Origin: Candidatus Hydrogenedentota bacterium
GTDB lineage: Bacteria; Hydrogenedentota; Hydrogenedentia; Hydrogenedentales; SLHB01
Direction of reading: 5' to 3'
Assembly (NCBI GenBank): GCA_035416745.1
Contig: DAOLNV010000002.1
Location: 111,250 to 175,249, forward strand
Length of the DNA: 64,000 nucleotides
A program made the translations under genes and the position numbers. The notes under the pieces were generated by a model that saw nothing but the letters and a program-made list of their open reading frames with translations, searched no databases and had not been told where the DNA came from. Positions within the stretch are counted from its first letter, which is position 1. Each line of letters begins with the position of its first letter. Shown here piece by piece: positions 11,501-63,858 of this stretch.

Positions 11501-11594
11501 TGCTGCGCTTCGCTGACATTGGCGGGGCATGTAAGCCCTCATGCGAAAGGGCGAGACTATTCCGGGGTGGCAATCGAAACTCACATGAGAAGAC

Positions 11595-26842: not shown

Positions 26843-27371
26843 AGGCCACCCCCTCGGCACACCCATGCTGGCACGGGCTTGATTTCGATGTCAATGGCGA
26901 TGGTTCGGAGTTATCCGTTTCCGTCACGACGGCCCGGAGCCCGGCCATGTCCTGGTTGTTTCGCGCGTCAGGCGGAATCGCATAATTAAATCGCCGGAAC
27001 CGAGCCTCCGAATCCAGGAGCCGCTTGCACTGCTAACGAAAGGCTGTATCGTGCCTTACGAGGATGGATACACCCTTGCATACGGTCCAGACCGTGGCCC
27101 CTCGAATCCGGAAAATCCTGACAGGAGTCTTGACTTTTGGGCTCTTGACTTCGGGTCAATTCCCGCGAAACTGGTGGCCAAGTAGTCATAAACCCTTGTT
27201 GTTGAATCGTGATGTGTTCTCGAAGACCATACGCGATATGAGATTCGTGATTGACGTTTGGGCCTCCGATCGGCACCATAGTAAGCGTGTGGGTACAGAT
27301 GAATGCTGGCCGGTTTATAGGGTAGACTTGCCGGAGTGATTTGAGGCGGTTCAGGGGAAGGGGTTTTATCC

Positions 27372-36568: not shown

Positions 36569-36821
36569 TTCGAATCCCCTTACTTTCCGCCGGATTCTAA
36601 TCCCATGGTCTTGAAAGCCGCAATCCGTCGCACTATGCACAGAGCGGGTGCAGCCGTGCCGCGGCGCGCCGCGATTCCGGCATACGGGCACATCTCGATA
36701 TGGCCGAATCCTTGATCAAGCCAGCGAGTATACGACAAAATGGTGCCGTTTCTCCGTCTATTGGCGCAAGGCTGGCACCTGCCGGGGGAATCCTCGGGCA
36801 AAATTTCCGGAAAGGATTGGC

Positions 36822-39800: not shown

Positions 39801-40335
39801 TGCCGAGCCCGGCGTCGTTTTCAAGGACCTCGCACAGCGGATCGCGCGCGGTTCGACCGTCATCTTCCTGACGACGGACACGTACGCCAAGGAAAACGAA
39901 TCAACGGGCTGGCTGCCGCTCAGAACCAAGGGTAACGTGTCCGGCATCGCCCGGTGGCTCTATCACTCCGACGAGTGGTGCAAAAGCCACCCGATCTTCG
40001 AAGGCATGCAGGCGGGCGGTTTGATGGACTACAGCTATTACCGCGAACTGATCCCCGACGTGGTTTTCATGGGCATCGAGCCAGCCGCCGACCCGGTCGC
40101 TGGCGGGATCAATGCCTCGTGGGGCTACCAATCCGGCCTTATGGTTGCGGTATACAAGCTGGGCGCGGGCGAGTTCATCCTGAACTCGCTGCTCATTCGC
40201 GACAACTTGGGCCGGGTTCCGCAGGCTGAACGATTGCTCCGCAACATGCTCCGGTTCGCCGGTCGCGACGTGGCCCAGCCGCTGGCAGACCTGCCGGCTG
40301 GGTTCGACGAAGAGCTCAAAGCGATGGGCTACTGA
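36822..40335 (+). CDS. GH2-family glycoside hydrolase (beta-galactosidase/beta-mannosidase/beta-glucuronidase-like) with a long C-terminal extension.
   Basis: It has a signal peptide (MRHGMSVLNGLVILTICLVCPVTYGA). Its N-terminal jelly roll is followed by an Ig-like domain and a TIM barrel carrying the GH2 acid/base motif NHPCITMWGLLNE (compare LacZ NHPSVIIWSLGNE). It is about 1171 aa. Confidence 0.85.
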
Positions 40336-43357: not shown

Positions 43358-43500
43358 GATCTCCTCCTGAAAGTCAGCGTTGAAACCAGGTTTGGCGCCT
43401 ATTCGAGCCGCTGAAAGCGGCTGTTTGACAACCAACGGCGCCGACCTCGAGTACGGGATCAGCCCGACACGCCGGGGATACGCCGTGTTCTTGCTCGAGG

Positions 43501-45039
43501 TCACGCCGGCTCGCTGTAGTTGACCCATTCCATGCCGCCCAGCTTCTTGAGTGCGTAACCGGCCTCTCGCAGGTAGTCTCCATAGACCACCTGTGCATGA
43601 AATCCCTCGATGCGCTCGGTAATGCGCTTGACATCGCCGTCTATGGCAATATCCATCTGCGAGCGGCACATCGGCAGCGCGGGGGAATCAACAATCGTGC
43701 CGCGGAATCCGTGCCAGCGTGTGCAGTGCAGGTCCGGCTGGATCAACGTGACGGTCTGGCCCTTGGCATACTCGACCTTGCTGGCCACGCCATAGTCGGA
43801 TTCGAAGTGCGTCATAAGGGTGACGGGTTCCAGGTTATGGCCGTCCATCTTCATGGGCGCGGCGCAATGGGCCACCGTGTAGATGCCGTGGTGTGGAAAG
43901 TGCGTGTTGCACACGAACGACGGCCTGGATGCAATCCAGCGGAGCAATACGCCGGGCATGGTGTGGCTGAGGTCGGTGTGGCAATAGGCCGTGTAGCCCG
44001 CATCGTTCGCCAGCGCCAGAATCAGGCATGGCGGCGTATCGAGCATGGCGATCACGTCATGGTTCATGCAGCGGTCGAACCCGAAATTGAATGCCTTCTT
44101 CTCCTCGAGTAACGATTGGCAGACTTTCCAGGCTGCGAAAGAATTGACCACGAATCTCCGCTCGGTTTGAAGCGAGATTTGTGGATTGGAGAGAAAGCGG
44201 TCTGTCTGTTCTTCGACCGATTTCATGAACTCAACGTCATCCCGTGCTCTTTGAAGCCTCTGCGCGAAATCCTCGCGGGGAACCACTTCAATTTCGTAAC
44301 CCCAGAGGTCTTTGGCAACGCGCGGGCCGTTTTCCTGAGCGGGACCGCTGTATGCGGTCAAGCTGCCGATGGCAAGGACCTTCGTGCCTCGAGCATTCTT
44401 CAGCCCGTACAGAGCACGCAGCCGCCATTGGAGCTCGGCATAGTCGTCCACGACCACATCCCAAACATCGAAATTGGGCTCGGCCATGGCGTCCTCGTGA
44501 TGTCGAAGCACCCGCCAATGGACAATCTCGTGGTAGAGATAGTAGGGTCCCGACTTGTGGCGCAGGAACATGATGTTCGGCTTCCCGCAATTGGCCAGTT
44601 TCCAGAACCACTCGACCGCGCCGCCCGCGGCATACGGCATCAGCACGTCCGCGTCGGATTCGGCGATGACCTTGTCTATGGCAGCCTCATTTTCGGCCAG
44701 AACCACCGGCCGGGGGGTAAGGGGGAACTCGGACGTCTCAGCCAACGCTTTCAACTCGGCTTCGATGCGCCGCGCTTCAGCGGCAGCCAGCTCCGCGGAG
44801 TGGATCGCGCCATAGGGGCGCCAGCTCGTCTTTTCCCCGCGTTGGGGCGTGTCGTAGCTCAGAATGGGCTGGACAACGATGGGTTTGCCCGGGGGCCAGT
44901 CCTCAGGCTGGACTTGTGAAGCCGGTTGAGAACCGGCGCCGGAAGCCAGCAACAGTCCGCCAACCGTTGCCGAGCCGCCCAGGAAACCCCGCCGTGTCAT
45001 TGCGAAACTGGACCCAGGCTGTTGGTCTTGGTGCTTCAT
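43501..45039 (-). CDS. TAT-signal hypothetical protein of 512 aa.
   Basis: It has a twin-arginine signal (MTRRGFLGGSATVGGLLLASGAG). Its RBS is GAGAGGGG. Composition is protein-like. No family recognised. Confidence 0.65.
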   Translation of the reverse strand: MKHQDQQPGSSFAMTRRGFLGGSATVGGLLLASGAGSQPASQVQPEDWPPGKPIVVQPILSYDTPQRGEKTSWRPYGAIHSAELAAAEARRIEAELKALAETSEFPLTPRPVVLAENEAAIDKVIAESDADVLMPYAAGGAVEWFWKLANCGKPNIMFLRHKSGPYYLYHEIVHWRVLRHHEDAMAEPNFDVWDVVVDDYAELQWRLRALYGLKNARGTKVLAIGSLTAYSGPAQENGPRVAKDLWGYEIEVVPREDFAQRLQRARDDVEFMKSVEEQTDRFLSNPQISLQTERRFVVNSFAAWKVCQSLLEEKKAFNFGFDRCMNHDVIAMLDTPPCLILALANDAGYTAYCHTDLSHTMPGVLLRWIASRPSFVCNTHFPHHGIYTVAHCAAPMKMDGHNLEPVTLMTHFESDYGVASKVEYAKGQTVTLIQPDLHCTRWHGFRGTIVDSPALPMCRSQMDIAIDGDVKRITERIEGFHAQVVYGDYLREAGYALKKLGGMEWVNYSEPA

Positions 45040-45230
45040 CGTGAACCCCTCTCGTATGTTTGCCCGCTCCCGTGATACGTAGTGAAATCCTACGTTCTCG
45101 CGCCGAAAGCTTCAATTTTCCCTGGCTGCGCGGGCTGTTCTCACTCTTCGAAGGTTCCATGTATGATGAGGACCGTGGGCGGTAGGATGCTGGCTGGCCG
45201 GTGTAGAATCGCCCGGAAAGGGTATTGGAC

Positions 45231-47834
45231 ATGCTCTGTGGAACACGTGTGCTGACACGCGGCAGGTTCGGCTTGCTCTTTGGCGCAATGGGTTTTGTTG
45301 CACTCGTGCGCGCCGCAGCGGCGGCTGAAACCCTCCCCTTTTACTACGCCCACGCGATTGTGGAAGACGGTTTGGGCGTGGCCGCACCTTGGTACAGTGG
45401 CCAGAATGGGCAGATAGATTATCGAATCCAGCGCGCGGCTGAGGTGCTGTTGAACTCCGGGTGGTCCGTCAGGAAGGTGGGCAATGGAACGTCCGTGACG
45501 ACCCCCACGTGTTTCTGGGGCGAAGGCGACCTCGACCCGGGATGCGTCCAGCGCGCGGCGCGCGCCCTGTTCGCACTCGTTGAATACTATCACTATTCTG
45601 GCGACCCGGCCGCCCTCGGCCACGCGGAGAGCATCGCGAACACGGTTCTGGACCTCTGCCAGACGGCACCGGACCACCCGTGGCCCCAATTCCTCATGAG
45701 CGTCCCCTACGGCGGCATAGGGAAGGACGGGAAGGTTACTTCCGCGGCATACATCCAACTGGACATCGCGGCGGAGTTTGGGGTAGCGCTGCTTCGCGCT
45801 TACCAATTGCTTGGAAACGAGCGATGGCTCACGGCGGCCCAACATTGGGCCGAGGTGCTTGCCGAGAAGCGCGACCACGACCCGGGCGCCCGCCCGTGGC
45901 CCCGTTACGCCAATCCGGAGGTGGTGCCGTGGGCGAAAGACAATCCCGCCGGCAACCTCCAGACGGGAGGCGTCGTCTACCTGCTGGCGTTGTTCGATGA
46001 ACTAATCAAGCTGGGGCATACAGGACGGGAGAATGGTCTCGTTTCCGCACGGGAGGCGGGCATGGCGTACCTCCGGGATGTTCTGCTTCCAGCCTGGGCC
46101 GTCAACGATACGTGGGGCCGCAACTACTGGGACTGGGAGAATCCGGTCCAAGCCCAGGTGACGACGGATTGGGCCGCCCGCTACCTCATGAACCACAAGG
46201 AGGAATTCCCGAATTGGAGGAATGACGTCCGCAACATCCTGTCGCTCTTCCTCAACCATTCCAGCGCCTCGCCTGAATCGCGGGGGAATGTCTATCACGG
46301 GGCTTGGCAGTTTCCCGAAGGGTGTGGATGCTGCGGGCGCTCGCTGGCGTGGGGTCCAATGGAGCTCGCCCTCGATTTCGCTCAGTATGGTGTGGAGGCG
46401 GATAGTGAATGGGCCCGGGAACTTGGACGGCGCATGGTGTTACTCGCGACCTATGACGTGGACGCATCAGGCGCCTACCAAGACAACATTGATGGCGGCG
46501 TCACGGTCGGGGATTTCCCGATCGTCCAGTACACGACCCTCAAGTGGGTGCACAGGACCATGTCGTGGTTGCCGGAGCTCCTTGGGCCGAGTCGCGAGAA
46601 TCACATCATGCGCAGCACCGAAGTAGTCAATACCGTGCAATATGGGGCGGGCCGGGTTGCGTATAGCGTGTTCGCCGCGCCGGCAAACACCACGGACGTC
46701 TTGCGCCTGGCATTTGAGCCCGAACGTGTGACGGCGGACGGCGAACAGCTGCCGTCCCGCTCCGACCTGGCCGAGAACGGCTATGTCGCGAAGGCGCTTG
46801 CAGGCGGGGATTACCTGGTGACGATACGGCACGACGGCCGGCTGCGCGTCGAGGTGACCGGAAATGATCCACAGGCCGCGGTCGACGATGCCCAGCTGGC
46901 ATATGAAGGCGAGTGGACGGCGCGCCCACAGGAACAAACCTTCGAAGAGGGAATCCACACCACCGCATCCCGAGGGGCAAGGGCAAGTTGTACGTTCGTT
47001 GGCAATCAGGTGCGGATTGTAGGCTCCGTGGGCCCCGAAGGCGGATTGGCTGATGTTTATATCGATGGGGAGAAACAGGCGTACGCGATCGATTTCTGGA
47101 ACCCGCGCACGTTGCACCAGCAGCTCGTGTACCGGAAAAACGGCTTGACGAACACGCAACACACGGTCCAGCTCGTAGCGCGCGGAGAGAAGAACCCTTT
47201 GTCGGCTGGCGCCGTGGTTGCCGTAGACAGCGTCCAGTACTCTGCCGCCGGGCACGAGAACGATTTCGGCGAAGGGGGCGGCCCGACCACTGTGCAGCGA
47301 ATGATCTTCGGCTACACGGGCCGTACGGATTACCGGGATACCCAAGGCAACTTGTGGCGTCCGGGCACCGAGTTTGCAGCGCTGACCGGGCATTTGACCG
47401 ATACTGTCGCAAAGACATGGTGGACCACGAAGCAGGCCGTTGCCGTTGCAGGAACACCGGACGGCGAACTTTACAGCTACGGCGTTCACTGGCCTGAATT
47501 CGTCGTGAATGTCACGGTTGGCCCCGGGACCTACTATGTTCGCCTGAAGTTCGCGGAAACGCAGTATGCGCAAGCGGGACAACGCGGAATCACTGTCGAG
47601 ATCAACAAACAGCCCGTAGTTGAGGATTTCGACGTGTTCGCCACGGCAGGCGGCGCCAACAAGGCTGTAGACCTTGTGTTCAACGGTATCGAACCCAGGA
47701 ACGGCGTCATTGACATTCGGTTTAGAGGCAATGTGATTGAGAGTTGTCCGCGTGAAGCGATGGTTCAAGCAATAGAAGTTGGCCCCGGAGACGGCGGCCG
47801 GGGCGCTGTCCCGCAATGTTTGCCGGGAGGTTGA
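45231..47834 (+). CDS. Secreted protein with an N-terminal helical ((alpha/alpha)6-like) glycosidase-like region and a C-terminal malectin-like carbohydrate-binding domain.
   Basis: The C-terminal segment TYYVRLKFAETQYAQAGQRGITVEINKQPVVEDFDVFATAGGANKAVDLVFNGIEPRNGVIDIRF matches the malectin/di-glucose-binding consensus (Y.vrLhFaE...RvFdVyiNg..v..dfDi.a.aGg). The N-terminus is helix-rich. The overlapping minus-strand 499-aa ORF is shadow. Confidence 0.7.
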   Translation: MLCGTRVLTRGRFGLLFGAMGFVALVRAAAAAETLPFYYAHAIVEDGLGVAAPWYSGQNGQIDYRIQRAAEVLLNSGWSVRKVGNGTSVTTPTCFWGEGDLDPGCVQRAARALFALVEYYHYSGDPAALGHAESIANTVLDLCQTAPDHPWPQFLMSVPYGGIGKDGKVTSAAYIQLDIAAEFGVALLRAYQLLGNERWLTAAQHWAEVLAEKRDHDPGARPWPRYANPEVVPWAKDNPAGNLQTGGVVYLLALFDELIKLGHTGRENGLVSAREAGMAYLRDVLLPAWAVNDTWGRNYWDWENPVQAQVTTDWAARYLMNHKEEFPNWRNDVRNILSLFLNHSSASPESRGNVYHGAWQFPEGCGCCGRSLAWGPMELALDFAQYGVEADSEWARELGRRMVLLATYDVDASGAYQDNIDGGVTVGDFPIVQYTTLKWVHRTMSWLPELLGPSRENHIMRSTEVVNTVQYGAGRVAYSVFAAPANTTDVLRLAFEPERVTADGEQLPSRSDLAENGYVAKALAGGDYLVTIRHDGRLRVEVTGNDPQAAVDDAQLAYEGEWTARPQEQTFEEGIHTTASRGARASCTFVGNQVRIVGSVGPEGGLADVYIDGEKQAYAIDFWNPRTLHQQLVYRKNGLTNTQHTVQLVARGEKNPLSAGAVVAVDSVQYSAAGHENDFGEGGGPTTVQRMIFGYTGRTDYRDTQGNLWRPGTEFAALTGHLTDTVAKTWWTTKQAVAVAGTPDGELYSYGVHWPEFVVNVTVGPGTYYVRLKFAETQYAQAGQRGITVEINKQPVVEDFDVFATAGGANKAVDLVFNGIEPRNGVIDIRFRGNVIESCPREAMVQAIEVGPGDGGRGAVPQCLPGG

Positions 47835-47915
47835 CACGGAATCAGCGTCTGGCAGCGAAGTGGGCCAACGGGTTTCCGGGGCCAGTGGCGGAATCTTGTA
47901 TTGGCGAGGAGGGCT

Positions 47916-50900
47916 GCGTATGTCCGGTTTTCTGTTCTCCGTAGCGATAGCTGCGCAGATGGTCACGGGTGCGGGAGAACCCCTCGCGGTGCTCGCCCTC
48001 TACAACCCCACGCAATGGGAGGGTCCCTGCCCCGTCGAAATCGCCACGGGCCGCATCGCGACGCCCGGTCTTATCGACTGGGGAAGCGTCGCGCTCCGAT
48101 TGAACGGCGCAGACCTGCCCTTCGCTCTCCGGGAAGGGCGTGCCCATTGGAAGGCGGGGCTGGCCGCCCCCATTGAATCGCCAAAGGCAGAGGACTTGCT
48201 GGTGTTCTCGTGCAGCGTGCCGCCAGAGACGTGGGCGCGGGTCGAGATCGTGCCGGGGATGGCGGACGGCACGCCGGCCGTGTCGCGCGCAGACGGCCTC
48301 GTGACGGTTCGTTACGAGAGGCTCGAGGCCGTAATCGGGGAAGACACGAGCATCCTGGCGAAGCTCTCGCTGTTTGGCACGCCCGTGCTGGCCGGGCCGC
48401 TGGCCATCGCGCCGCGGGCGCTGCCGGACAACGCCTATACGTTCACGGGTCCCATCGGTCCGGGCCACGCCCGCGCGGAGATCAGCATCGCGGACGGGAA
48501 GCCCTTGCCGTACACGGCACGGCTCGTCTCGGTCTCCTCCTCGCCAGTCTTCACGGAACTGAATTTCGTACTGACCTGTGCCGACAGATTTTCCCTGGGC
48601 CTGACTTACCGGTTTCGGTCGTGCGGGGTCGCGGAGATATGGGCCGATGAACGGCCCGTCGAAGGACCAAGCCCCTGGCGCCATCATGCCGTAACGTACG
48701 CCCTCCTCTTGACGGGCGACTGGGAACCCCTCCCCTATCTCGAAGACCGGCTGGTTTTCTACGGCTTCAAAGACTTCGCGGCTGCAATCCAGCAGACCGC
48801 GCGTCATTACGGCCATTGTTTCGAGCTGGGCGAGGAATACGTCAACGGCCGCCGGTGGGTCCGGCGCCTGATTGGCATCCCGCCTGACAAACGCGACAAG
48901 GCGGATGCACTGCTCGAACTCATCGACAAGGGTTTCATTGTCGACGTGTCGCCGGTCACGGCCCCCGTGGCCGGCGGTCACGTGACGGGGCCTGAGGGTA
49001 CCGCGACGATCGTGCGCGATCTCCAGGAAGTCCTCGGCGCATCTCCCGGTGACGCGACTCCTGTAAAGCTTGAGCTTAGCGAAGATGCCCGGCTCGAGGG
49101 CGACGGCTTCGCGATCAGCTCCAACGGTGCCGGGGGCATTCTGGTCCGGGCGCGTACCCGCCTCGGGCTCGGTTCGGCCGTCAGCGCGATTGCAGATTGC
49201 CGCGGACGCCATCCCGAGTGTGGTGTCCCGCTGATTGCGCGCAATCCCGTGGTCTCCCTGCGCGGGGGCGGGTTTGGCGGAGGCACGTTCGAGGTCGATT
49301 TCCCCTATGGGACGGATGAAGAGTGGGAGCAAACGTTCGACAAGCTTCTCGATTCGGGCATGAACATGTTCTGGTGCCTTGGCATGTGGGGCAACTGGAA
49401 ACTGCCCGTCAGTTACAAATACATGCCTGAACTGCGCTCTGACGACCCCGAGGCCTATGACGAATCCTCGGGGACGCTGTTCCGCGAGTTCGCGCAACAC
49501 CGCGACCACGGCCTGAAACTCATTCACTACCTGCGCGAGCGGGGCGCGGCGGTGGGTCTGTGGCTGCCCATCGGCTGTGTGCCCACGACTTTCGCCCAAA
49601 AATACCCCGAAGCGATGATGCCGGAGAGCTTCGAGCAGTTCTGGGGCCGGGCCAAGGGCATCCCCTGCTTTACCCATCCCAAGTACATTGAATACCTCGA
49701 TGCATTCCTGCGCGAAGTGACCGAGACCTACCCACTCGACGCGATCATCATGGTCCGCGACGATAACGGCGGCTTGTGCACCTGCGACCGGTGCAAGCAG
49801 TTCGTAGCCCAGTCGCGCACCCAAAGCGGCGCATGGGAACAGTACCTGATCATCTATCAACGCCTGAAAGAGGCCGGTTTCGCCGGTAAAGTGGGCGTCT
49901 ACCCGTATTTCGACGGGCTGACCCCTGAGATCGACGCGCTGCTGCCGGAGGATTTGTTCCTCGCCGGTCATGGCGCTTCGACGGCCGCCCTGACACGCAA
50001 CCAGGAGCGGATCGGGCATATGGCCGACACCTGGCTCGACAATCTATACACGAACTTCCGCCTGCCGCCGTCGCCCCGCATGCGCCGGTTTCTCTCGGAC
50101 CGATGCACATTCTGGATAGGCGGAGCGTACCGCGGCACCGAGTTGCCGTGGGAGTCCATAGGCTACTTTGGCTGGGAACCGACGGCTACGCCCAACAGCC
50201 TGCGTTACGAGTGGGGCGTGCGCACCTTTGGCCGGGAGAACGCCCTGACCTTCGCAGGCATGTCCGATGCTTACGAACATCTGTGGGAGATTAACGCGCG
50301 GCACATGCTGCCCAAAGTCTGGTTGGAGCTGCGCCCCGGCGAACGCCAAGCGGTCACCGCCGAAGCAGAGGCCGCACTTGCCCGCTACGAGGAACAACTT
50401 GCGCAGCTTGAGCAGCAGGCGGGCGGCGAGAGGCACAGCGCGTGGTTCAAAACGGTCCGGGTCTTCCCTGCGTTCATGCGCTATCACCTGCGCCGGCTGG
50501 ATGCGTTCGCCAAGGTCTACAACACGGTCCGCGAGCATAGCGCGGCCATCGACGGCGGCGGCAATCTGCCTGAAGAAGTACGGCTGCAACTCCTGGCGGA
50601 GTACCAGTCGATGTATGCTTACGCCCGCAAATACGCGAACGCCCTCGAGCAGGCGCCGGGGGGGATGTTCGAGGCGACACGCAACATGACCATGCCGTAC
50701 AAGGAATGGATGGCCGGATATGACGGCTGGCTGGACCCCTTGCTTGACAGGCCCCAGTTCGCGGGGACGCTTGATGCCGAGCCCGTGACCCTGACGCCCG
50801 GCCAGCCGTTCACGTTGCGGCTCGTTCTGCGCAACACGGGCATCTGCCCATGGATTGCGGAGGCCGGACAGCGCTTGACCATCGAAGGCGCCAGCCAGGC

Positions 50901-51081
50901 CGGACTGCCCGAGGCATGGGTATACGATGGGGAGCCGGCGGCGCCGGGCGACACGCGAACAATCGAGTTCGAGGGTCGCGCCCCCGATACGCCCGGCAAA
51001 AGCGAACTGACCATCGTCTTCTACAACCCGTATCGTGTGGCCGGGAAGATCGCCGAGAAGAAAGTGGTGCTGTCACAATGA
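47916..51081 (+). CDS. Large hypothetical protein with a GH20-like (GH20b subdomain + TIM barrel) glycosidase-like core.
   Basis: It has a GAGGAGGG RBS. GILVRARTRLGLGSAVSAIAD resembles the GH20b-type subdomain. NPVVSLRGGGFGGG...KLLDSGMNMFWCLGMW resembles the start of the GH20 barrel (RG..lD..R.f...ma..K.N.lhwHl.D). The overlapping minus-strand 725-aa ORF is shadow. Confidence 0.7.
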
Positions 51082-51286
51082 TTCACAGGACCCGCAATAG
51101 AGGTGCTGCGCGTTCCGGGCGGGTGCTGCCCACATGACCCGGTTCTCTTTTCTCTCGTGAACCTGTTAGAGTACGGCTGGTGCCGATACGCCTGCACAAC
51201 GGTCTGGATAACAGGGATTTCGGGCAGGGCGCCGGTAGACATTTCAACACATGACAGGGGCTCGATTCCCGGGAGGTAACAGGCTC

Positions 51287-52144
51287 ATGCGCAATACGCT
51301 GCAACTCATGTGGACAATGCCCATGGCGCTTGTGGTTAGTGCCGCCGCAATAGCCAGCGAAGCCGGTGGAGAGGCCAGCGGGACCGTGCAGGCCCAAGTC
51401 ATCCTGACCGTTTCCGAAGGCAAACGGCTCATCGCCAAGGCCGTGGCACAGATGCCCGAGGTGAAGAAGGCGTTGCAGGACGGTATCGTCATTATCGGGA
51501 GGGGCACGACAAACACCTATGTGGCCGAGGAACTCACCGGCCAGAAGATTGCCCATGGTGCGTACGTCATCGGCTGGACCGGTCCGGCCCAAGGAACCAA
51601 AACCATGGATTCAGCAGAACGGATAGACGATATCGTGCTGGTGAAAGGCAAGGTGCAGCCGGGCTTGAGCATGGATGACGCTCTCAAGGAACTTAAAGCG
51701 GGCGATGTTGTGATCAAGGGAGCGAACGCGTTGAACCGTCAACGCAAGACGGCTGGAGTACTCATTGGCGGGGGGCCCAACAGCTCGTCCGGCACCACCG
51801 GCAAGTTCATGTCTGTCGTTGTGGGCCGGAAGGCGCACCTTATTATCCCCGTTGGTTTGGAGAAGCAAGTAGACGGCGACGTGGTCGATATTGCCAACAA
51901 GATGCGCGAACCGCTCGAAAGCCTGAACGACATTCCGTCGATGTTCCTGTTGAACGGCCAGATCCTGACTGAGATCGAAGCCCTGGAACTCCTGGCTGGC
52001 GTATCGGTCTTCCAGGCGGCCGCGGGCGGAGTCGGCGGCGCCGAGGGCGGGACTAGACTCATTTGCCGCGGAACGCGCGAGCAGGTGCAGCAGGCGCTTG
52101 CCATCGTCGAGTCTATCCAAGGCGAACCTATGTTCCTGGAATAA
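51287..52144 (+). CDS. Hypothetical protein with an N-terminal signal/anchor and Gly-rich nucleotide-binding-like loops.
   Basis: It has MRNTLQLMWTMPMALVVSAAAIASEA, then GIVIIGRGTTNTY and GVLIGGGPNSSSGTTGKF. Composition is protein-like. No family assigned. Confidence 0.55.
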   Translation: MRNTLQLMWTMPMALVVSAAAIASEAGGEASGTVQAQVILTVSEGKRLIAKAVAQMPEVKKALQDGIVIIGRGTTNTYVAEELTGQKIAHGAYVIGWTGPAQGTKTMDSAERIDDIVLVKGKVQPGLSMDDALKELKAGDVVIKGANALNRQRKTAGVLIGGGPNSSSGTTGKFMSVVVGRKAHLIIPVGLEKQVDGDVVDIANKMREPLESLNDIPSMFLLNGQILTEIEALELLAGVSVFQAAAGGVGGAEGGTRLICRGTREQVQQALAIVESIQGEPMFLE

Positions 52145-52383
52145 TCGCCACAAGAAAAACCGGCCGAGACATACATGTCAATCCGGGACGGTCTGCGCGT
52201 GTTATCCTGAGACCTTTGACGGGCAGCGCGTAACCGGTCCGTGTCCCGCGCCGCCGCCCCCTGCTGCACTATCCCTTCGTGGACTAAGGAACCTTTGGGT
52301 ATCTTCCCCATCATCCGTTGAAACCACCCGCAGAGCCCCTTTTCCGGCATCTAACCTTTCCGCGGCTCCCGGCATCAATTACA

Positions 52384-55122
52384 ATGGAAATAGTGGGAGA
52401 AATGGACATGACAGAACGCGATGCTGATCAGGTGCGGCGGGCGCGGGCGGGGGACCGTGCCGCATACGGGGCATTGGTGGACGCCTACCAGGGCATGGTG
52501 TTCGCCACGGCCCTGAATATCACCGGCAACTACAGCGACGCCGAGGACGTGGTGCAGGACGCGTTCCTGCGCGCGTTCGAACGGTTGGGCACGCTGGTAG
52601 AGCCGATGAAGTTCCCCGCATGGCTTCGCACACTGGCGAGCCGGTCGGCGCTGCAACTTCTCCGGAAGAAACGCCACGTGGCGGCGTTCGACTTGGACGA
52701 ATCGGCCGGCGAACAGACGGCATCCGGGGCCGAATCGCCCGCCGAGGCCTATGCGCGAGCGGAGTTCGCGCGGCTCTTGTGGCAAGAGGTGGGCGAACTC
52801 CCGCCCAAGACGCGGGAAGCGGTCCTTCTCTTCTACATGGAAGGCTATTCGGTCAGCCGCGCCGCAGCGTATTTGGACTGTTCCGAAGGGGCTTTGAAAA
52901 CACGGCTGCACTTTGGACGCGAGAAGCTCCGGCAAGCTTTGCTGGAGAAGGTGGAGGCTGAGTTGCGCGATCACCGGCCCACGGAGAAGACGCGAAACGC
53001 CGTACTGGCGGCCCTGCCGCTATCCGTTGGCGGCTCAACCGCGTTGATGGCGCCGGGCAAGGGTGCGGCCTCCGCAATGCTCACTCTGACCCCTTTCACG
53101 GTGGGGGTCACGGCCTGCATTGTTCTGGTGATGGCTGGTCTGGCGGCATTGGCGCTCTGGCCGAAGATTCCGGCGCCCGATAGTGCGCCTGTGGAACCGC
53201 TGTCTGTCGCGGACAGGGCGGATGACGAGCACTTGGCCGCATCCGAGCCGCCCGAATCGGAGAAACCGTTCGAGGACACGCCGCAGGCGGCGGCCCACGA
53301 GAATGCTCCCGCGGAAGAAGCGCCCGAAGGGGCTTGCAGCATCGCAGGGCGCGTTTTCAACGCGCAAACCGGCGAGGGGTTGCCGGGAGTCGAGTTGAGC
53401 GCGCGAGGCGGCGATACGCGCGTCTCCGCGACGACAGACGCGGCGGGCGCGTTCCGGTTCGAAAGATTGCCCGCCCAGCGGTATCGGGTGTTCTGCGGGA
53501 AGGCCAAAGGCTACTACGAACTCGAGCACGGCGAACTCCAGGAAGTCGATCTCGGGGAGAACGAGCAATTCGAGGGCCTGGACTTTGCGCTGCAGCCCGG
53601 CGTATTCGCCTCCGTGTCGGGACACGTGCTACTACCGGGCGGTTCACCGGCTTCGGGGGCCAAAGTCGTGGCATTCACGGATTTTTCGGCTCCCGGACGG
53701 CCGCAATCGGTCGAGTGTACGGCCAAAGAGGACGGCACCTTCCTTGCCGAGGAACTGCAAGTGGGGGCGGTATTGCATGCCAAGGCCAGCGCGGAGGGCT
53801 TTCGCAGCAGACGGCAGGGTCCGTTTCATCTGCCCGAGGACGGAATCGAGGACGTCACGATTTGCCTGTATCCTGCCGGGAGCATCTCGGGAGTGGTTGT
53901 GGACAAATCGGGGCGGCCCATTTCCGATACGGACATCGGGGTAAAGGCGCAGTGGTGGGAGAAATACGAGGGATCGACCGCCATCCAGGAAGCACAGGCT
54001 AAGACAAACGCGGACGGCACGTTTGTGTTTGAGGAACTTGAAGCGGGCGGCTACCTGTTATGGGCCACGTCAGAATCGGAAATGTCAATGTCGTATGACG
54101 GGCTTTGGCTGGAACCCGCCCCGGAGGACCTGGTGCAGGTGGACGAAGGCCAGCACGTGACCGGCGTTACCGTGGTGTTCGACTACGCCAAATACAAGCA
54201 GAGCCGCGAAGCCGAAGCGCGGACTGCGCCGCCCGAACCCTCGGTGGACGTTACGCCGTCCGATAGACCGGTCTGGGGGCGCATCGAAGGCCAGGTCGTG
54301 CGGGCCGGCTCCGGCGAGCCGGTGACGTCGTTTCGGCTCTCCGCGCGCGGAGACGGACGATATGCCGAGGCGGTCAATGATCCGGAGGGGCGGTTTGAGG
54401 TCGAGGGCGGAGAAGAGGCGCGGACCACCTTGCACGTGAGCGCAGCAGGCTTCGCTTCCGCTCAGACGCTGGTCGAGAGGCCCGAGGGTTCGGCGGCCGC
54501 CGTCCAGGTGACCATACGCATGGAAGCCGCCTGCATTGTTGACGGAAAAGTCGTCGATTGGAACGGGAACCCGGTTGCAGGGGCCGTCATCTACCTCGAC
54601 GGGCTCGGAAACCGGGAAGCCATCGACAATCGGGAAGACGCCCGCGTGAAAACCGGCGGCACGTTTCGCCTGGATGCCTTGGCGCCGGGCCTGCATCGCT
54701 TGTATGCGCTGCATCCGGACTTCGCGTTCGCCTGGGCGGATGTCGAGGCCAGAGCAGGCAGGCCCGCAAAGGTGACGATCCCTCTCGCCCGCGGCGGCAA
54801 CATCGAAGGAGCGGTGACGCGCGAAGGAGAACCTGCCGCCGAGATATGGGTGCGGGCGCTGCCCGATACGCTCCTGGATTGGCCCAATCTGCAAGATGTG
54901 GCTAACGAACTCATGGCTAAGCAGGTTTCCCGTCTATACGCACGAACCGACGCCTCCGGCGCTTATGCCCTCACAAACATCCCGCCGGGACGTTACCTGG
55001 TAGCCGCCGACAGCGAGTTCGGCGCCATACAGGAGAAAGCGAACCGGGCGGGGGCGGAGGGTTTGGTGGAGGCAACCGTTGAACCAGATATGGTTACGCA
55101 AGTTGACATCGCGCTAAATTGA
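52384..55122 (+). CDS. ECF (sigma-70 family) sigma factor fused in one polypeptide to a transmembrane segment and a large extracytoplasmic domain of about 6 CarboxypepD_reg-like repeats.
   Basis: Sigma70 region 2 is AEDVVQDAFLRAFERL...FPAWLRTLASRSALQLLRK. Region 4 is LPPKTREAVLLFYMEGYSVSRAAAYLDCSEGALKTRLHFGREKLRQAL. The TM helix is FTVGVTACIVLVMAGLAALALW. Repeats of the type GRVFNAQTGEGLPGVELS...TDAAGAFRFERLP follow. Confidence 0.75.
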   Translation: MEIVGEMDMTERDADQVRRARAGDRAAYGALVDAYQGMVFATALNITGNYSDAEDVVQDAFLRAFERLGTLVEPMKFPAWLRTLASRSALQLLRKKRHVAAFDLDESAGEQTASGAESPAEAYARAEFARLLWQEVGELPPKTREAVLLFYMEGYSVSRAAAYLDCSEGALKTRLHFGREKLRQALLEKVEAELRDHRPTEKTRNAVLAALPLSVGGSTALMAPGKGAASAMLTLTPFTVGVTACIVLVMAGLAALALWPKIPAPDSAPVEPLSVADRADDEHLAASEPPESEKPFEDTPQAAAHENAPAEEAPEGACSIAGRVFNAQTGEGLPGVELSARGGDTRVSATTDAAGAFRFERLPAQRYRVFCGKAKGYYELEHGELQEVDLGENEQFEGLDFALQPGVFASVSGHVLLPGGSPASGAKVVAFTDFSAPGRPQSVECTAKEDGTFLAEELQVGAVLHAKASAEGFRSRRQGPFHLPEDGIEDVTICLYPAGSISGVVVDKSGRPISDTDIGVKAQWWEKYEGSTAIQEAQAKTNADGTFVFEELEAGGYLLWATSESEMSMSYDGLWLEPAPEDLVQVDEGQHVTGVTVVFDYAKYKQSREAEARTAPPEPSVDVTPSDRPVWGRIEGQVVRAGSGEPVTSFRLSARGDGRYAEAVNDPEGRFEVEGGEEARTTLHVSAAGFASAQTLVERPEGSAAAVQVTIRMEAACIVDGKVVDWNGNPVAGAVIYLDGLGNREAIDNREDARVKTGGTFRLDALAPGLHRLYALHPDFAFAWADVEARAGRPAKVTIPLARGGNIEGAVTREGEPAAEIWVRALPDTLLDWPNLQDVANELMAKQVSRLYARTDASGAYALTNIPPGRYLVAADSEFGAIQEKANRAGAEGLVEATVEPDMVTQVDIALN

Positions 55123-55488
55123 ATTTATTGATTGCAACAGGCCTTGCCATTATGTTTGAATCAATAGTTTGTCAACTCTGAATAACTCTTAATGGAATTG
55201 CCGTTTCCTGCGGTACGCATGAAGCCTTACGCTGCTCGGCAGAGCAAGTTCACCCCAAAAGAATATAAACAAAAACCATAATATCAATTAGACCCTGCAT
55301 CGTCACAAGTCTTGTATTTCTAAGGCTTTCCGCACATTCTCTTAGAAATGGCAGACAAAATTTCTTGTGGCCGTCCTGAAATGGCGGAGTTGGCAAGACA
55401 CTTGCGTTCCCAAATGCAAATGTTCTTGTCGTGACCGAAACGGCGGGGGTTAGATTCCACCCACCCTGATTAGGAGGCATTAAGGGCC

Positions 55489-60197: not shown

Positions 60198-61739
60198 CTA
60201 TTTGTCTTCCGGGGGAAGTTCGACGAGCCAGATGTTGCGGAACCAGACGGGGTTTCCGTGGTCCTGGAGCGACAATGCATCGGGTTCCGAGGTGGCCGTC
60301 ACCTGCGAGCCCGTGGTCTTGTCGGGGATAGGCTGATTCTCGTGCACCGGCACGCCGTTATGCAAGACGGTGATGCGCGCGTCTTCCAACTTGTTCCAGT
60401 CGCTGTCGAACCGTGCGGCGCGGAATTCGATGTCGAATGTCTGCCATTGCAGCGGAGGCGCACACACGTTTACCCGCGGGGCGGCAAGTTTGTAGATTCC
60501 GCCGCAATCGTTGTTTTCGCCGGCAAGTCCGTAGCTGTCCAGAACCTGGACTTCATAGCGGTTCTGGAGAAAAACGCCGCTGTTGCCGCGTTTCTGCCCG
60601 TCCTGGTCGGGCAGGAAAGGCGTCCGAAACTCGACGTGCACTTTCTGGTCGATGAAGTTCTGCTTGGTCTGGATGCTGCCGCCGCGGACTTCCATGGCGC
60701 CGTTGCCGAGGATCAGCCAGGTTGCGGGGCCGGGCTCGGTCTGCTCGGGCAACGGCACGGGCTTCCATTCCGCATCGCCCTGTTCCGGGGCGAAAGCCAC
60801 ATCCATCAAGTCGGCGCCGGTCTTTCCTTCCGCGGTGTACGGGCCCGAGACTTCCCACAACGCGATATTGCCGTCAAACGACTCGAGCGGAAAGAGGTCC
60901 TGCCCGGGAGCGCCCACGAAGAAGCCAGCGACGGGGGATGCATCAAGACCGCGCAATCGGGCCGTAAAGGCCCATTCTTTGTCGTTCTGGACCACTTTTG
61001 CCAGGAAGAGGTTCCAGCCTTCGAGGAGGTCGACCGTAACCTTGTTTTGGCAGGGCGTAACCTTGCGATCTTCGATTATTGAATGTATCTCGGCATTGTT
61101 GAGCCAGACTTTTCCGCCGTCTTCGATGCCGTAGGCGAACTGTGCTTTGCCTGGCGCGGGCGCCCACACCCATGTGCGCAGATAGGCGACGCGGTTTTCG
61201 CCGCCGAGCGTTTTCTTGAGGTTGATACCCCACGGGTCGACGCCCCGCGCCACCCAGAGGTCAAGGTTGCTGCCGTCAAACAACACGATGGCTTCCTTCG
61301 GCGGCCGTGCGCCGAGCGTAGGAGAGAGACGTACGACGTGATGGAGCTCGAGGCCGCCGGATACCGCGCCTTCCACGCGCCCGGTCATGGTTTTGCCCCG
61401 GATGGAGACGGCAACCTTGGCGTCTTTCATGTCGCCGCTGGCGCCCGCCCCGGAGAAGTCCACGCCGCCTTGGACCGCTTTGCCGTCAAGCACGGCCAGC
61501 GCCGGTTCGCGCGTATCAAACGCCGGCAGCAGGTTCATACGGTAGGTTTTGCCCGCCAGCGGGATGACCTGGGCATATATCTTCGCGCTGCCCCATTTGC
61601 CCTCCCAGTCGCCCATGTGCGGGTCGCCCGGCGTGGTCTGAGCCGGGCTGGCTTCATCGCGAGCTCCCTGGAACGTGGCGCAACCGCCCAGGAGCGCTAC
61701 GGCCAGCAATGCAATCATCGGAAGATGACGGGTTTTCAT
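60198..61739 (-). CDS. Lipoprotein with a C-terminal DUF1080 domain (3-keto-disaccharide hydrolase-like, GH16-like fold).
   Basis: It has a lipobox (LLGGC). The C-terminal segment GNSGVFLQNRYEVQVLDSYG...CGGIYKLAAP...WQTFDIEFRAARF...ITVLHNGVPVHENQPIP...LSLQDHGNPVWFRNIWLVEL matches the DUF1080 signature closely. The RBS is AAGGAGAG. Confidence 0.8.
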   Translation of the reverse strand: MKTRHLPMIALLAVALLGGCATFQGARDEASPAQTTPGDPHMGDWEGKWGSAKIYAQVIPLAGKTYRMNLLPAFDTREPALAVLDGKAVQGGVDFSGAGASGDMKDAKVAVSIRGKTMTGRVEGAVSGGLELHHVVRLSPTLGARPPKEAIVLFDGSNLDLWVARGVDPWGINLKKTLGGENRVAYLRTWVWAPAPGKAQFAYGIEDGGKVWLNNAEIHSIIEDRKVTPCQNKVTVDLLEGWNLFLAKVVQNDKEWAFTARLRGLDASPVAGFFVGAPGQDLFPLESFDGNIALWEVSGPYTAEGKTGADLMDVAFAPEQGDAEWKPVPLPEQTEPGPATWLILGNGAMEVRGGSIQTKQNFIDQKVHVEFRTPFLPDQDGQKRGNSGVFLQNRYEVQVLDSYGLAGENNDCGGIYKLAAPRVNVCAPPLQWQTFDIEFRAARFDSDWNKLEDARITVLHNGVPVHENQPIPDKTTGSQVTATSEPDALSLQDHGNPVWFRNIWLVELPPEDK

Positions 61740-62047: not shown

Positions 62048-63670
62048 TCAAGGAGTGGCGGCCGTTTCCGCGTCGGATGCGACGAGCGTGCTGTCTTCGT
62101 CCCGTATCACGGTCTTTTGAGCCTGGCTCAGGTCGCAACCGGAAACGAACATGCGCGAGCTTTGCACCGCGTGCAGAAAAGCCGGAATGCCGGGCTCGGC
62201 GTCACAGTCGCGGACGCTGGCGGAAGTTCCCTTCAGACCGATCGCGGCCTGCGCAGGGAGCGAGACAAGGCCGCGAGTGCGAATGTTGCTCAGCGCAGCG
62301 CCGTAGACCTCGTCGCAGAACAGGCCATATCGCCATGCGCCGCGCGCCGCGCGCAAATCGATATCGACATCCTGAATCCGCAATCCGTCCACGCGCGCAC
62401 AATAGAGCGCATACGGGTTTGCAGGGGCGCCCCAGACCCCGCTGGCGGCAGGCGCGGCGCCTTCCGGCATATCGCCGGTCAGAAGAAACTGGATGTTGGA
62501 GAGAGTCACGTTTTCACAGTGTTTCTTGTCGAATCCGCCAACATAGCTGCCGTACCGTGATTGGGCAATGACGTTGGACACGAGGATATTCTTGAGGTGC
62601 ACCTGGGATTGCTCGCCCGTCTCGTTGCCCATCCAGAAGTAGAGCGCCTGATTGACGTTTCGCATGACAACGTTGTTGAAGGTGATGTTCTCACACCGGG
62701 TCCCCCTGACAATGTTGGGCCGCCCCGGCAAGATGCTGACGATGTCGAGTCCGATGTCCGTATCGAAGATTGTCAGGTTGCTGAATGAACAGTTTCGAAT
62801 GATGGAGTCGCCCTCATAACCGATTCGCACGCCACAGGCCGGCACGGAGCACAGAACACAATTGGTCACCGTGATATTCTCGCAGGGCTTGTCTTCCCCG
62901 AGCAGTCCCGCGTCGCTCTTGATGGCGATGGCGTCGTCGCCGCCATCGATCGAACAATTGGCGATGCGCACATCGCTGCAACAGTCGATGTCGATCCCGT
63001 CGGTGTTCGGACCGTCGTGAGGATTGCGAATGGTAATGCCGTCGATAGTGACGTTGTTGCAGCCGATCGTCCAAAGGGTATAACAGGACGAATTGGCCAG
63101 GGTAACATCACGGACCCGAAGGGAATCGCCTTTCACAATTGCTATTAGCGCCCGCGGACGGTTCGGCATGGGCTTTCTGACCATCGCAGAAAGCATCTCC
63201 TCGAACCAGAACTTCGAGCCTTGGCCATCAATGGTTCCCCGGCCTTCAATCGAGACGTTTTGGACGCCCTCGCCATAAATAAGAAACCCTCCCCCGACGA
63301 CTTCAGGGATTCCAAAGGATGGGGCATCGGGGTCTTGTCGAACAGCCGGAGGATAGTCTTCCGGGCGCGCGCTTCCTCGAAGCACGGCATTCGCTTCCAG
63401 CAGAAGGCGGACATTGTCTTTCAGGAACACGCTTCCTGAGAGATACACGCCCGGCGAAAAGTACACGGTTCCTCCGCCGGCCGCGGTGCACGCATCGATG
63501 GCCTTCTGGATGGCCGCCGTGTCGAGCGCGGTTCCATCTCCAACGGCGCCAAATTCCTGAACGCGAACCACCACGGGGGAAGGCGCTTCCAGGGCCTCAC
63601 GCTGCGATTCGGGCGACCCGGCAACCAGTGTGATGGCCAGGAGACGGAGGAAAAGTGTGCGGCTAATCAT
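62048..63670 (-). CDS. GH28-family glycoside hydrolase (polygalacturonase/rhamnogalacturonase-like), secreted.
   Basis: It has a signal peptide (MISRTLFLRLLAITLVAG). GAVGDGTALDTAAIQKAIDAC...GGGTVYFSPGVYLSG is the classic GH28 N-terminus. It also has NTDGIDID and GGDDAIAIKS motifs and a Cys-rich parallel beta-helix. The RBS is TAAGGAG. Confidence 0.85.
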   Translation of the reverse strand: MISRTLFLRLLAITLVAGSPESQREALEAPSPVVVRVQEFGAVGDGTALDTAAIQKAIDACTAAGGGTVYFSPGVYLSGSVFLKDNVRLLLEANAVLRGSARPEDYPPAVRQDPDAPSFGIPEVVGGGFLIYGEGVQNVSIEGRGTIDGQGSKFWFEEMLSAMVRKPMPNRPRALIAIVKGDSLRVRDVTLANSSCYTLWTIGCNNVTIDGITIRNPHDGPNTDGIDIDCCSDVRIANCSIDGGDDAIAIKSDAGLLGEDKPCENITVTNCVLCSVPACGVRIGYEGDSIIRNCSFSNLTIFDTDIGLDIVSILPGRPNIVRGTRCENITFNNVVMRNVNQALYFWMGNETGEQSQVHLKNILVSNVIAQSRYGSYVGGFDKKHCENVTLSNIQFLLTGDMPEGAAPAASGVWGAPANPYALYCARVDGLRIQDVDIDLRAARGAWRYGLFCDEVYGAALSNIRTRGLVSLPAQAAIGLKGTSASVRDCDAEPGIPAFLHAVQSSRMFVSGCDLSQAQKTVIRDEDSTLVASDAETAATP

Positions 63671-63858
63671 TCGATACTCCTTAGAAACGGGATCCAGGCC
63701 AAACCAACGCCGGCTGCCGGTTCCCGTCGAACGGACGGTCAGCGCGCGCCTCGCGTTGTCCTTCACGGAACATGGTAACCGAGCCTCGGGCGAATTGTAT
63801 CCGCAACGCAATTGTGGGATGCTTGCGTGTGTTTTATCAAATTGAGAGGTATCGTGCC

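Follow-up and report, generated by a model that had tools for sequence, protein, structure and literature searches.

A single-polypeptide, membrane-anchored ECF sigma factor with a conserved juxtamembrane motif and six outer modules in Candidatus Hydrogenedentota

We analyzed a 64,000-nucleotide stretch from Candidatus Hydrogenedentota (positions 111,250 to 175,249 of contig DAOLNV010000002.1, assembly GCA_035416745.1), hereafter called the window, and within it a gene on the + strand (52408..55122, stop codon TGA at 55120-55122) that encodes a 904-residue membrane-anchored extracytoplasmic function (ECF) sigma factor. The protein contains, in one reading frame, the domains sigma2 and sigma4, one transmembrane (TM) helix, a Pro/Glu/Ala-rich linker, and six CarboxypepD_reg modules. 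This architecture had been proposed in an earlier sequence-only reading and was borne out by Pfam, NCBIfam, a Kyte-Doolittle hydropathy scan, and AlphaFold2 (AF2) modeling, as was the assignment of the protein to the poorly characterized, C-terminally extended ECF sigma factors. With a probability of roughly one half, we propose that the sigma factor is inhibited in cis by a short motif resembling helix 4 of anti-sigma domains together with membrane anchoring, is released by regulated proteolysis, and positively autoregulates its own gene.

The open reading frame (ORF) runs without interruption from 52318 (TTG) or 52384 (ATG) to the stop codon. The start is most likely the ATG at 52408 (MTERD...), because the N-termini of all homologues line up there, a Shine-Dalgarno sequence (GGGAGA, 52395..52400, + strand, read from the sequence) precedes it by 7 nt, and the ATG equivalent to that at 52384 is out of frame in three related loci (L006, L008, and L097). 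GGAG-type motifs occur at an equal distance from the start codon in other loci. The in-frame ATG at 52384, previously taken as the start, sits within a conserved promoter-like block; it was rejected on the ground of the three out-of-frame loci and lies probably eight codons (24 nt) too far upstream.

Pfam analysis was performed on the 912-residue reading that begins at 52384, whose residue numbers are those of the 904-residue protein plus eight. There, Sigma70_r2 matched residues 31-97 (E=5e-14; PF04542, 52 bits against a cutoff of 24) and Sigma70_r4_2 matched residues 131-182 (E=7e-13; PF08281, 48 bits against a cutoff of 25.7), so that both models passed their cutoffs at the N-terminus. In the numbering used below, region 2, the part for core binding and −10 recognition, comprises residues 23-89 (52474..52674, +), and region 4.2, the part for −35 recognition, comprises residues 123-174 (52774..52929, +). 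Similarly, the NCBIfam model TIGR02937 (sigma70-ECF) scored 83 bits against a cutoff of 42.9, and the Foldseek and phmmer matches of the sigma part were all ECF sigma factors; by sequence, the closest solved structure was SigW (5wuq_A, E=1.4e-21). The invariant core residues include DxxQxxF, the W of region 2.3/2.4, and R/L residues of region 4.2. No Pfam match to sigma region 1 or region 3 was found in the protein, which, having sigma2 and sigma4 without sigma1.1 and sigma3, belongs to the ECF (group 4) sigma-70 family. Every NCBIfam model of a named ECF subfamily (SigW, RpoE, SigM, SigE, Planctomycetaceae subfamily 1, and the Rhodopirellula/Verrucomicrobium family) remained far below its cutoff; the best scores were 104 bits for PRK11922 (cutoff 204) and 103 bits for SigW PRK09641 (cutoff 209), and the planctomycete/verrucomicrobial ECF subfamily models TIGR02989 and TIGR02984 gave 70.7 bits (cutoff 124.6) and 63 bits (cutoff 184), respectively.

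Exactly one hydrophobic segment of the protein, located downstream of sigma4, exceeded 1.6 on the Kyte-Doolittle scale (peak 2.55). This single TM helix, LTPFTVGVTACIVLVMAGLAALALWP (residues 227-252; 53086..53163, +), is predicted to be oriented N-in/C-out, was modeled by AF2 as a helix at 229-249 with modest confidence, and contains Pro, Gly, and Thr. It is followed by an extracytoplasmic Ala/Pro/Glu/Asp-rich linker (residues 253-309; 53164..53334, +; A13, P10, E10, and D5 among 57 residues), which is predicted to be disordered (predicted local distance difference test, pLDDT, <50) and may plausibly serve as a target for a site-1 protease. The remaining part matched CarboxypepD_reg (PF13620) in six stretches (E=2e-54; 182 bits against a cutoff of 32.3), and six domain starts of the form [ILV]xGx[ILV] as well as six beta-sandwich modules in the AF2 model coincide with these stretches. 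Modules 1-3 (residues 310-395, 400-489, and 491-590; 53335..54177, +; AF2 strands at pLDDT 70-90) are separated by a partly helical, partly Pro-rich interdomain linker (residues 591-624; 54178..54279, +; from the AF2 model and the sequence) from modules 4-6 (residues 625-705, 709-793, and 797-903; 54280..55116, +). The best Foldseek matches of the outer part were tandem Ig/Cna-B-type stalks of pilins and adhesins, and no known ligand-binding sensor was among them. At about 4 nm each, the six modules would form a periplasmic rod of roughly 20-25 nm.

More than 20 independent assemblies, which stem from a variety of samples and sources, contain the fusion. A full-length search retrieved the same architecture at 98, 71, 65, and 63% identity (905-907 aa) and a further set at 30-39% identity (1027-1302 aa) from JGI, NCBI, ENA, and Logan assemblies. 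In a clade of 13, namely the query and 12 proteins from independent contigs at 98% to ~30% identity, each member has one hydrophobic segment at an equal position. A word-indexed search with the N-terminal 260 residues gave few useful matches, and an exhaustive HMMER search with residues 1-260 against 1.84 billion representatives was informative. It revealed a tight clade of ~22 representatives above 190 bits, nearly all of 900-1370 aa, and CarboxypepD_reg was present in 14 of the 16 members of this clade that were scanned. Furthermore, the GC content at third codon positions (GC3) runs on across the junction between the sigma part and the extension (0.77 versus 0.73). Because the same uninterrupted architecture occurs in independent assemblies and GC3 is continuous, the fusion is real: this is a single gene and neither a frameshift product nor an assembly artefact, and no frameshift or stop codon separates the sigma part from the downstream part here or in the >20 assemblies.

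Genome matches and source names placed the clade in Candidatus Hydrogenedentota, and its wider relatives include Verrucomicrobiota; the Planctomycetes-type setting that had been suggested was not upheld. The source names are all generic, i.e., 'sigma-70 family RNA polymerase sigma factor' of Hydrogenedentota or Verrucomicrobiota. One contig (L002, CAZFOG010000250.1) is labelled 'uncultured Nitrospiraceae bacterium' and carries the sigma-fusion gene together with a downstream PEP-CTERM gene in synteny with the Hydrogenedentota loci (63% identity for the sigma fusion and 71% for the PEP-CTERM protein); it may have been misbinned. One NCBI protein (P0005, ~71% identical) lacks the linker motif as well as a portion of the TM helix and has a frameshifted Arg-rich tail at its end; this is probably an assembly or annotation error in its metagenome-assembled genome.

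Next, we analyzed the ~50 residues between sigma4 and the TM helix. Because they are so few, there is no room for a four-helix anti-sigma domain. They contain, upstream of the TM helix, the motif RPxxxxRNAVLAALP, which is the best-conserved part of the protein outside the sigma core and is comparable to that core in its conservation. In the present protein it reads RPTEKTRNAVLAALP (residues 190-204, with a helix at 193-202; 52975..53019, +), a candidate cis-acting module on the evidence of conservation, the AF2 model, and alignment to RsiW. All 13 members of the clade share A198, A201, A202, L203, and P204 without exception, P204 is almost always retained in 108 wider relatives, and a related motif, P-x3-F-T-x-A-V-L-A-A-L-P, is common to most of the wider relatives. 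Since it is conserved as strongly as the sigma core, the motif does not appear to be a mere passive tether. The Gly/Ser/Ala-rich spacer between the motif and the TM helix (residues 205-226; 53020..53085, +) is, by comparison, little conserved and was predicted to be flexible (AF2 pLDDT ~50, no secondary structure).

The motif weakly resembles helix 4 of RsiW-type anti-sigma domains. RsiW of B. subtilis carries APADFTANVMAKLP (residues 58-73) directly before its TM helix, and retrieval of the RsiW family bore this out, with 99% identity to the RsiW sequence used to find it. The linker profile aligned the motif columns to the APADFTANVMAKLP segment in 104 of 120 RsiW-family proteins, with a maximum of 10.1 bits compared to 2.1 for the shuffled and −1.8 for the reversed control; hhalign of the linker against the RsiW profile gave 16 aligned columns (P=2.3e-4, probability 44%). 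It has been established that helix 4 of class I anti-sigma factors binds regions 2.1/2.2 of sigma2, the surface for the beta-prime clamp, and thereby blocks binding to core, and that RsiW and CnrY are of the 'wrap-around' type (PMC7406223). The HxxxCxxC signature of the zinc-binding anti-sigma (ZAS) domain was absent from the query and from all of its 142 nearest representatives (0/142), zf-HC2 and RskA gave no match in the protein or in the linker plus TM segment, and no canonical ZAS anti-sigma factor was found in the 860 kb of DNA searched. A separate anti-sigma gene adjoining the sigma-fusion gene was likewise found neither in the window nor in the related loci (at least 10 loci); regulation is therefore either built into the protein or encoded at a distant site.

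The sigma part was unreliable (pLDDT ~50) in a full-length AF2 model built from 13 sequences, and residues 1-270 were remodeled with 108 sequences. This model reached a pLDDT of 85 and a predicted template modeling score (pTM) of 0.70, with sigma2 and sigma4 above pLDDT 93. The last sigma4 helix (160-188, pLDDT >92) runs on to residue 188 (nt 52971); after a four-residue turn, a further helix at 193-202 was predicted at pLDDT ~92, and residues 203-228 were disordered. When the placement of sigma2 relative to sigma4 was compared using Foldseek, it came close to CnrH-CnrY (root-mean-square deviation, rmsd, 4.0 Å; TMt score 0.72), SigW-RsiW (TMt 0.68), and RpoE-NepR (rmsd 5.4 Å), whereas ECF sigma factors bound in holoenzymes deviated by 26-27 Å. 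The modeled sigma2/sigma4 arrangement thus fits the closed, anti-sigma-bound states. The term 'sigma/anti-sigma fusion', used in the sequence-only reading, is weakly supported: the helix-4-like 15-residue motif and the closed AF2 state point in that direction, but the ZAS, Pfam, NCBIfam, and PDB searches returned no anti-sigma match.

The DNA upstream of the gene was confirmed to be non-coding (52145-52407), although it measures 263 bp and not 240 as given before, and it holds a conserved promoter-like element, CTAACCTTT-N12-GCATC followed by AATTACAATGGAA (52351..52388, +). CTAACCTTT, with its AAC, is −35-like and GCATC is −10-like. ECF promoters usually have an AAC-containing −35 and a CGT-like −10; here, a −10-like C[AG]TC lies ~16-17 nt past the AAC of the element, which is the customary layout in this family. 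Positive autoregulation from such a promoter is typical of ECF sigma factors but not obligatory. The upstream DNA of the window and of L001-L003 could be aligned only in the block CTAACCTTT-N12-GCATC-NN-TTAnAATGGA, which is perfectly conserved. A variant, CT[AT]ACCTTT-N12-nn[AG]TC, stands upstream of distant members in unrelated contexts (L005, L006, L008, L009, L010, L011, and L097); the element was found upstream in ~10 of 11 loci, usually 56-57 nt before the start codon. The tight pattern matched once in the window, with 0 matches expected, and a position weight matrix (PWM) found no second site of at least 14 bits in the window and the L001-L011 loci. A scan for the exact element in a metagenome collection gave 100 matches; 94 were chance matches in unrelated contigs of low GC content, and the other six lay in GC-rich contigs, in five of which the element is directly upstream of a sigma-fusion gene. 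In the sixth (L054, 1231-1261), it is ~130 nt upstream of a glycosyltransferase-8-like ORF, beside a divergent PAAR-like ORF; this site could be due to chance or belong to a regulon. The conservation of the element and the lack of further copies nearby suggest that it is an autoregulatory ECF promoter of the sigma-fusion gene.

In the mechanism that we favor, the protein would be a one-protein transmembrane signaling sigma factor with a working ECF sigma2/sigma4 pair as its cytoplasmic N-terminus. The last sigma4 helix would lead into the short helix TRNAVLAAL, which would fold back on the sigma domains and hold them closed and unable to bind RNA polymerase; it would thereby play the role of class I anti-sigma helix 4, and the covalent link would stand in for the three-helix bundle that normally binds sigma4. 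The spacer, the TM helix, and the disordered, acidic, Pro-rich linker would join the sigma part to the six-module periplasmic rod. A signal acting on the outer part, such as damage, binding of envelope components or polysaccharide, or a mechanical pull, would expose the linker to a site-1 protease, after which an RseP-type site-2 protease would cut within the TM helix and free the sigma part, which a cytoplasmic AAA+ protease might trim further. Once released, the sigma factor would transcribe promoters of the CTAACCTTT-N12-GCATC type, including that of its own gene, resulting in positive feedback. Because the spacer between the motif and the TM helix is disordered and unconserved, proteolysis is favored over rigid conformational transmission, and a single N-in TM helix containing Pro, Gly, and Thr and a disordered outer linker are features compatible with regulated intramembrane proteolysis. 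The sequence-only reading had assumed that the sigma factor is permanently tethered; IutY, the sole characterized analogue, is released by Prc and RseP (PMC8999054).

Several points weigh against this mechanism. AF2 may prefer closed conformations for ECF sigma factors whatever the biology, and the contact of helix 193-202 with sigma2 is presumed. The likeness to RsiW is short and statistically weak (about 10 bits at most; hhalign probability 44%), the linker plus TM segment had no Pfam or NCBIfam anti-sigma match at E<=10, and the linker profile matched no anti-sigma chain among PDB sequences. Site-2 cleavage would leave the helix covalently joined to the sigma part, and the proposed mechanism does not account for its removal in a way that spares the sigma domains. 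Furthermore, no site-1 or site-2 protease gene was found in the window, and no regulon member beyond the gene itself emerged from the window, L001-L011, or the metagenome scan. The promoter-like element could also be read by another factor, since a TAnAAT-like hexamer lies just downstream of GCATC.

An alternative that we consider possible, although we doubt it, is that anchoring to the membrane alone keeps the sigma factor from RNA polymerase and the nucleoid. Release would still occur by intramembrane proteolysis, and the motif would not be an inhibitor; it could position or recruit a site-2 protease or an adaptor, or be a 'pro-sigma' element needed after release, like the FecR-type N-tail. 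This would agree with the lack of any anti-sigma domain model match, with the weakness of the similarity to RsiW helix 4, with the location of the motif ~22 residues from the membrane, which is plausible for protease docking, and with the released IutY fragment, which retains part of the anti-sigma region (PMC8999054). However, AF2 placed the helix confidently within the closed sigma2-sigma4 arrangement, and in a true anti-sigma family it was specifically the helix-4 segment to which the motif aligned. Less likely still, the sigma factor would not be cleaved at all and would recruit RNA polymerase at the membrane, as ToxR/CadC/TcpP-type factors bind DNA there, with the periplasmic array switching through oligomerization or conformational change induced by a ligand or contact. 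The earlier notion of a permanent tether agrees with such activity, the sigma4 C-terminus is surface-exposed in holoenzymes, a flexible segment of ~50 residues between sigma4 and the TM helix could reach, and ECF41 and ECF42 tolerate large C-terminal extensions (PMC7826278). Nevertheless, with a disordered, unconserved spacer and a single TM helix, conformational coupling through the membrane is improbable, the ECF reviews (PMC7826278, PMC8999054) document no membrane-active sigma factor, and the one characterized analogue is released by proteolysis.

It is very unlikely that the sigma-like part has no role in transcription and is an anchor, a decoy, or a PhyR-like partner-switching module for a surface stalk of an adhesion or envelope structure. 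The outer part does resemble adhesin and pilin stalks, and there was a weak PhyR_sigma-like Pfam match (E=3e-4) below its cutoff; yet the sigma2, sigma4, and ECF superfamily models passed their cutoffs, the sigma core residues are invariant, the protein has no receiver domain, and distant members keep a conserved ECF-like promoter upstream of the gene. We give practically no weight to an artefact in which a frameshift, misassembly, or chimeric contig joined an ECF gene to the gene for a membrane or secreted protein. P0005, with its missing linker and TM part and its frameshifted tail, shows that errors occur in this gene family, but the uninterrupted fusion in >20 independent assemblies at 98% to ~30% identity, the continuous GC3, and a junction that carries the part best conserved outside the sigma core (the linker motif) all speak against it.

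We then considered how far this organization extends. The wider set consisted of the 142 nearest representatives, with already known matches left out; 132 had at least 300 aa, 108 had a hydrophobic segment starting soon after sigma4, and 74 carried an xxALP-type motif. Their extensions fell into two kinds: some cross the membrane once and carry an outer domain, and the others are polytopic, with 5-7 segments. When 74 wider relatives were analyzed with Pfam, CarboxypepD_reg was found in 14, a few had STN, TPR, or nuclease domains, and most had no match. Other fusions were also observed among individual proteins (P0021, P0024, P0027, P0029, and P0030), i.e., ECF sigma factors with CarboxypepD_reg repeats and thioredoxin/AhpC-TSA-like domains (1223-1285 aa) and a Sigma70_r4_2 fusion with an M16 zinc protease (882 aa), which suggests that the outer modules of membrane-anchored sigma factors vary widely. 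In a test of whether the C-terminal part has split anti-sigma partners (Rosetta-stone test), its sigma-less CarboxypepD_reg relatives were ordinary secreted proteins with signal peptides, and this candidate was rejected.

More tentatively, and as a combined proposal that we would sooner doubt than accept, the proteins may belong to a large superfamily, as yet without a name, of 'one-component' transmembrane sigma factors that spans Hydrogenedentota, Verrucomicrobiota, and numerous unnamed lineages known from metagenomes. In its members, the anti-sigma domain would have shrunk to the sigma2-binding helix 4, the covalent link to sigma4 making the bundle unnecessary. A constant cassette of sigma factor, helix 4, and TM helix would be paired with outer modules that can replace one another (CarboxypepD_reg rods with 6 to ~10 units, polytopic, TPR, STN, or thioredoxin-like), and the rod would probe the envelope state or extracellular polymers across the periplasm, with cleavage or pulling triggering release of the sigma factor.

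Known systems resemble the protein in part. IutY of P. putida (in a subset of ECF243) is the only fused sigma factor for which experiments have demonstrated activation by regulated proteolysis, with Prc and RseP as the proteases (2022 review, PMC8999054). Like the present protein, it unites an ECF sigma factor at the N-terminus, one TM helix, and a periplasmic sensor part in a single polypeptide. However, IutY comes from a different phylum and combines a FecI-type sigma factor with a complete FecR-type anti-sigma factor and a TonB-dependent receptor as partner, whereas the periplasmic part of the query has six CarboxypepD_reg modules. No FecR or DUF4880 Pfam match was obtained in the query, which is thus not of the IutY (FecI-FecR) type, and no STN or TonB-dependent receptor gene lies next to the sigma-fusion gene in the window or the related loci. 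Proteolytic activation has been predicted for ECF48, ECF52, and ECF53 (PMC8999054, PMC5826349). These actinobacterial proteins, e.g., SCO4117, also have a C-terminal extension with TM helices and an extracytoplasmic part, but their ZAS anti-sigma domain lies between sigma4 and the TM helices, where the query has only the 15-residue helix-4-like motif. Judged by its sequence, the query is not a class I (ZAS-type) sigma/anti-sigma fusion of the ECF48/52/53 kind.

SigW-RsiW and CnrH-CnrY are similar in that SigW is the closest solved sigma factor, the closed arrangement fits best, and the motif is like the pre-TM segment of RsiW. In contrast, these sigma and anti-sigma factors are separate proteins, and RsiW has a full four-helix ZAS domain, while the query would lack helices 1-3 and have the remnant joined to sigma4. 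RsiW is destroyed by site-1 and site-2 proteolysis. Members of ECF263 have a C-terminal extension with five or seven TM helices (Casas-Pastor et al. 2021, PMC7826278) and share with the query a membrane-embedded extension on an ECF core and the lack of a separate anti-sigma factor. Polytopic relatives with 5-7 hydrophobic segments and the same post-sigma4 motif are among the nearest neighbors of the query and recall ECF263, although the query and its 13-member clade differ from the description of that group by one hydrophobic segment each and a large outer array. A CarboxypepD_reg extension is unmentioned in the main text of that ECF classification (PMC7826278).

Planctomycetal ECF sigma factors (ECF57/ECF01-Gob) have a conserved sigma2-sigma4 core and variable, often very long C-terminal extensions of diverse Pfam content (Pinto and da Fonseca 2020, PMC7671368). 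Variable extensions also occur among the wider relatives of the query, but the extensions of ECF57 are dominated by WD40-like repeats, the lineage of the query is Hydrogenedentota, and in its family the linker motif and the TM helix are part of a constant cassette. No WD40 family was among the 23 Pfam matches of the query at E<=1. As a functional analogy only, RsgI/SigI of cellulolytic Clostridia can be compared, in which a single-pass protein with extracellular modules controls a sigma factor via intramembrane proteolysis (PMC10556640, PMC10575876). Those genomes are rich in carbohydrate-active enzymes, as is the window; nevertheless, RsgI and SigI are separate proteins, the sigma factor is of another class, and RsgI has carbohydrate-binding modules and an autoproteolytic SEAL domain, neither of which was detected in the query.

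Membrane-anchored, C-terminally extended ECF sigma factors were thus already known, and nothing in the protein contradicts current concepts; new here are the minimal helix-4-like cis element, the CarboxypepD_reg rod, and a defined candidate promoter. Within the third major bacterial signaling system, no branch is less well understood than the ECF sigma factors that carry fused regulatory extensions. With one gene that supplies a helix as candidate cis-inhibitor, just one TM helix, an outer part built of modules, and a candidate promoter, the present system is compact enough to be a good experimental model, in which it can be tested whether a single helix-4-like helix is enough for autoinhibition, whether release is intramembrane, and how a covalent inhibitor is removed. 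Self-contained, orthogonal pairs of a sigma factor and a promoter are also attractive for synthetic biology. For annotation, hundreds of proteins of 500-1400 aa that are named only 'sigma-70 family RNA polymerase sigma factor' would appear to be membrane-anchored sensors.

The gene downstream of the sigma fusion, which starts at 55489, carries a PEP-CTERM motif and had been regarded as horizontally acquired-looking. In close relatives, this gene is the only syntenic neighbor, being adjacent in L002 and located past a 1.7-kb insertion in L001; among distant members, the genomic context is not conserved. Its GC3 is 0.69 compared to 0.72-0.79 for its neighbors, and a horizontal origin was rejected on the basis of this near-normal value and the synteny. 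The 366-bp spacer in front of it (55123-55488) has a GC content of 0.44 against 0.61 for the window, and it is this AT-rich spacer and not the gene that looks foreign. A simple scan found no intrinsic terminator past the sigma-fusion gene. In L001 (Hydrogenedentes UBA2224), the ~1.7-kb insertion (10719-12466) between the two genes contains a minus-strand ORF of 379 aa (10987-12126) whose Arg/Pro-rich translation makes it doubtful that it is a gene.

The PEP-CTERM gene had also been considered as a possible sharer of the ECF promoter. The tight pattern and the PWM matched only upstream of the sigma gene, which rules this out, and a sigma54-type −24/−12 element, TGGCAAGACACTTGC (55391-55405), was found 84 nt upstream of 55489 instead. 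It is conserved in L001 (12425-12439) and L002 (3515-3529) at an equal relative position within otherwise diverged intergenic DNA, and further matches at a consistent position were observed in L032 (7055-7069, −) and L065 (1103-1117, −). PEP-CTERM genes are known to associate with sigma54-dependent regulators (PrsK/PrsR). The element suggests that the PEP-CTERM gene relies on sigma54 together with an enhancer-binding protein; because it has its own conserved sigma54-type promoter, the gene is probably not a target of this ECF sigma factor. The idea of a target or of a foreign origin is corrected by these results. A second conserved block, AATCAATAG..TT.TCA....TGAATAACT (55179-55187, within 55160-55190), stands ~300 nt ahead of the PEP-CTERM gene in all three of the window, L001, and L002; it could serve the sigma54 promoter as an upstream activator (enhancer) site.

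On the other side of the sigma-fusion gene, an ORF of 297 aa (51251-52144) has a hydrophobic, signal-like N-terminus and no Pfam match and is not syntenic in L001-L003. No RseP- or DegS-type protease and no exosortase was found in the window. The window is dense in carbohydrate-active and surface genes, namely those for a glycoside hydrolase family 106 (GH106) rhamnosidase (2318-5467), a DUF1559/N-methyl pseudopilin-like protein (17526-18524), a sulfatase (25292-26866), a PKD/PASTA/BACON protein (27372-31313), two GH42-like proteins (33737-36691 and 47779-51081), a GH2 protein (36700-40335), a GH123-like protein (40637-43669), a malectin/CE2 protein (45225-47831), a 3-keto-disaccharide hydrolase (60198-61739), and a GH28 protein (62048-63811). 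This gene content is consistent with a polysaccharide-degrading lifestyle.

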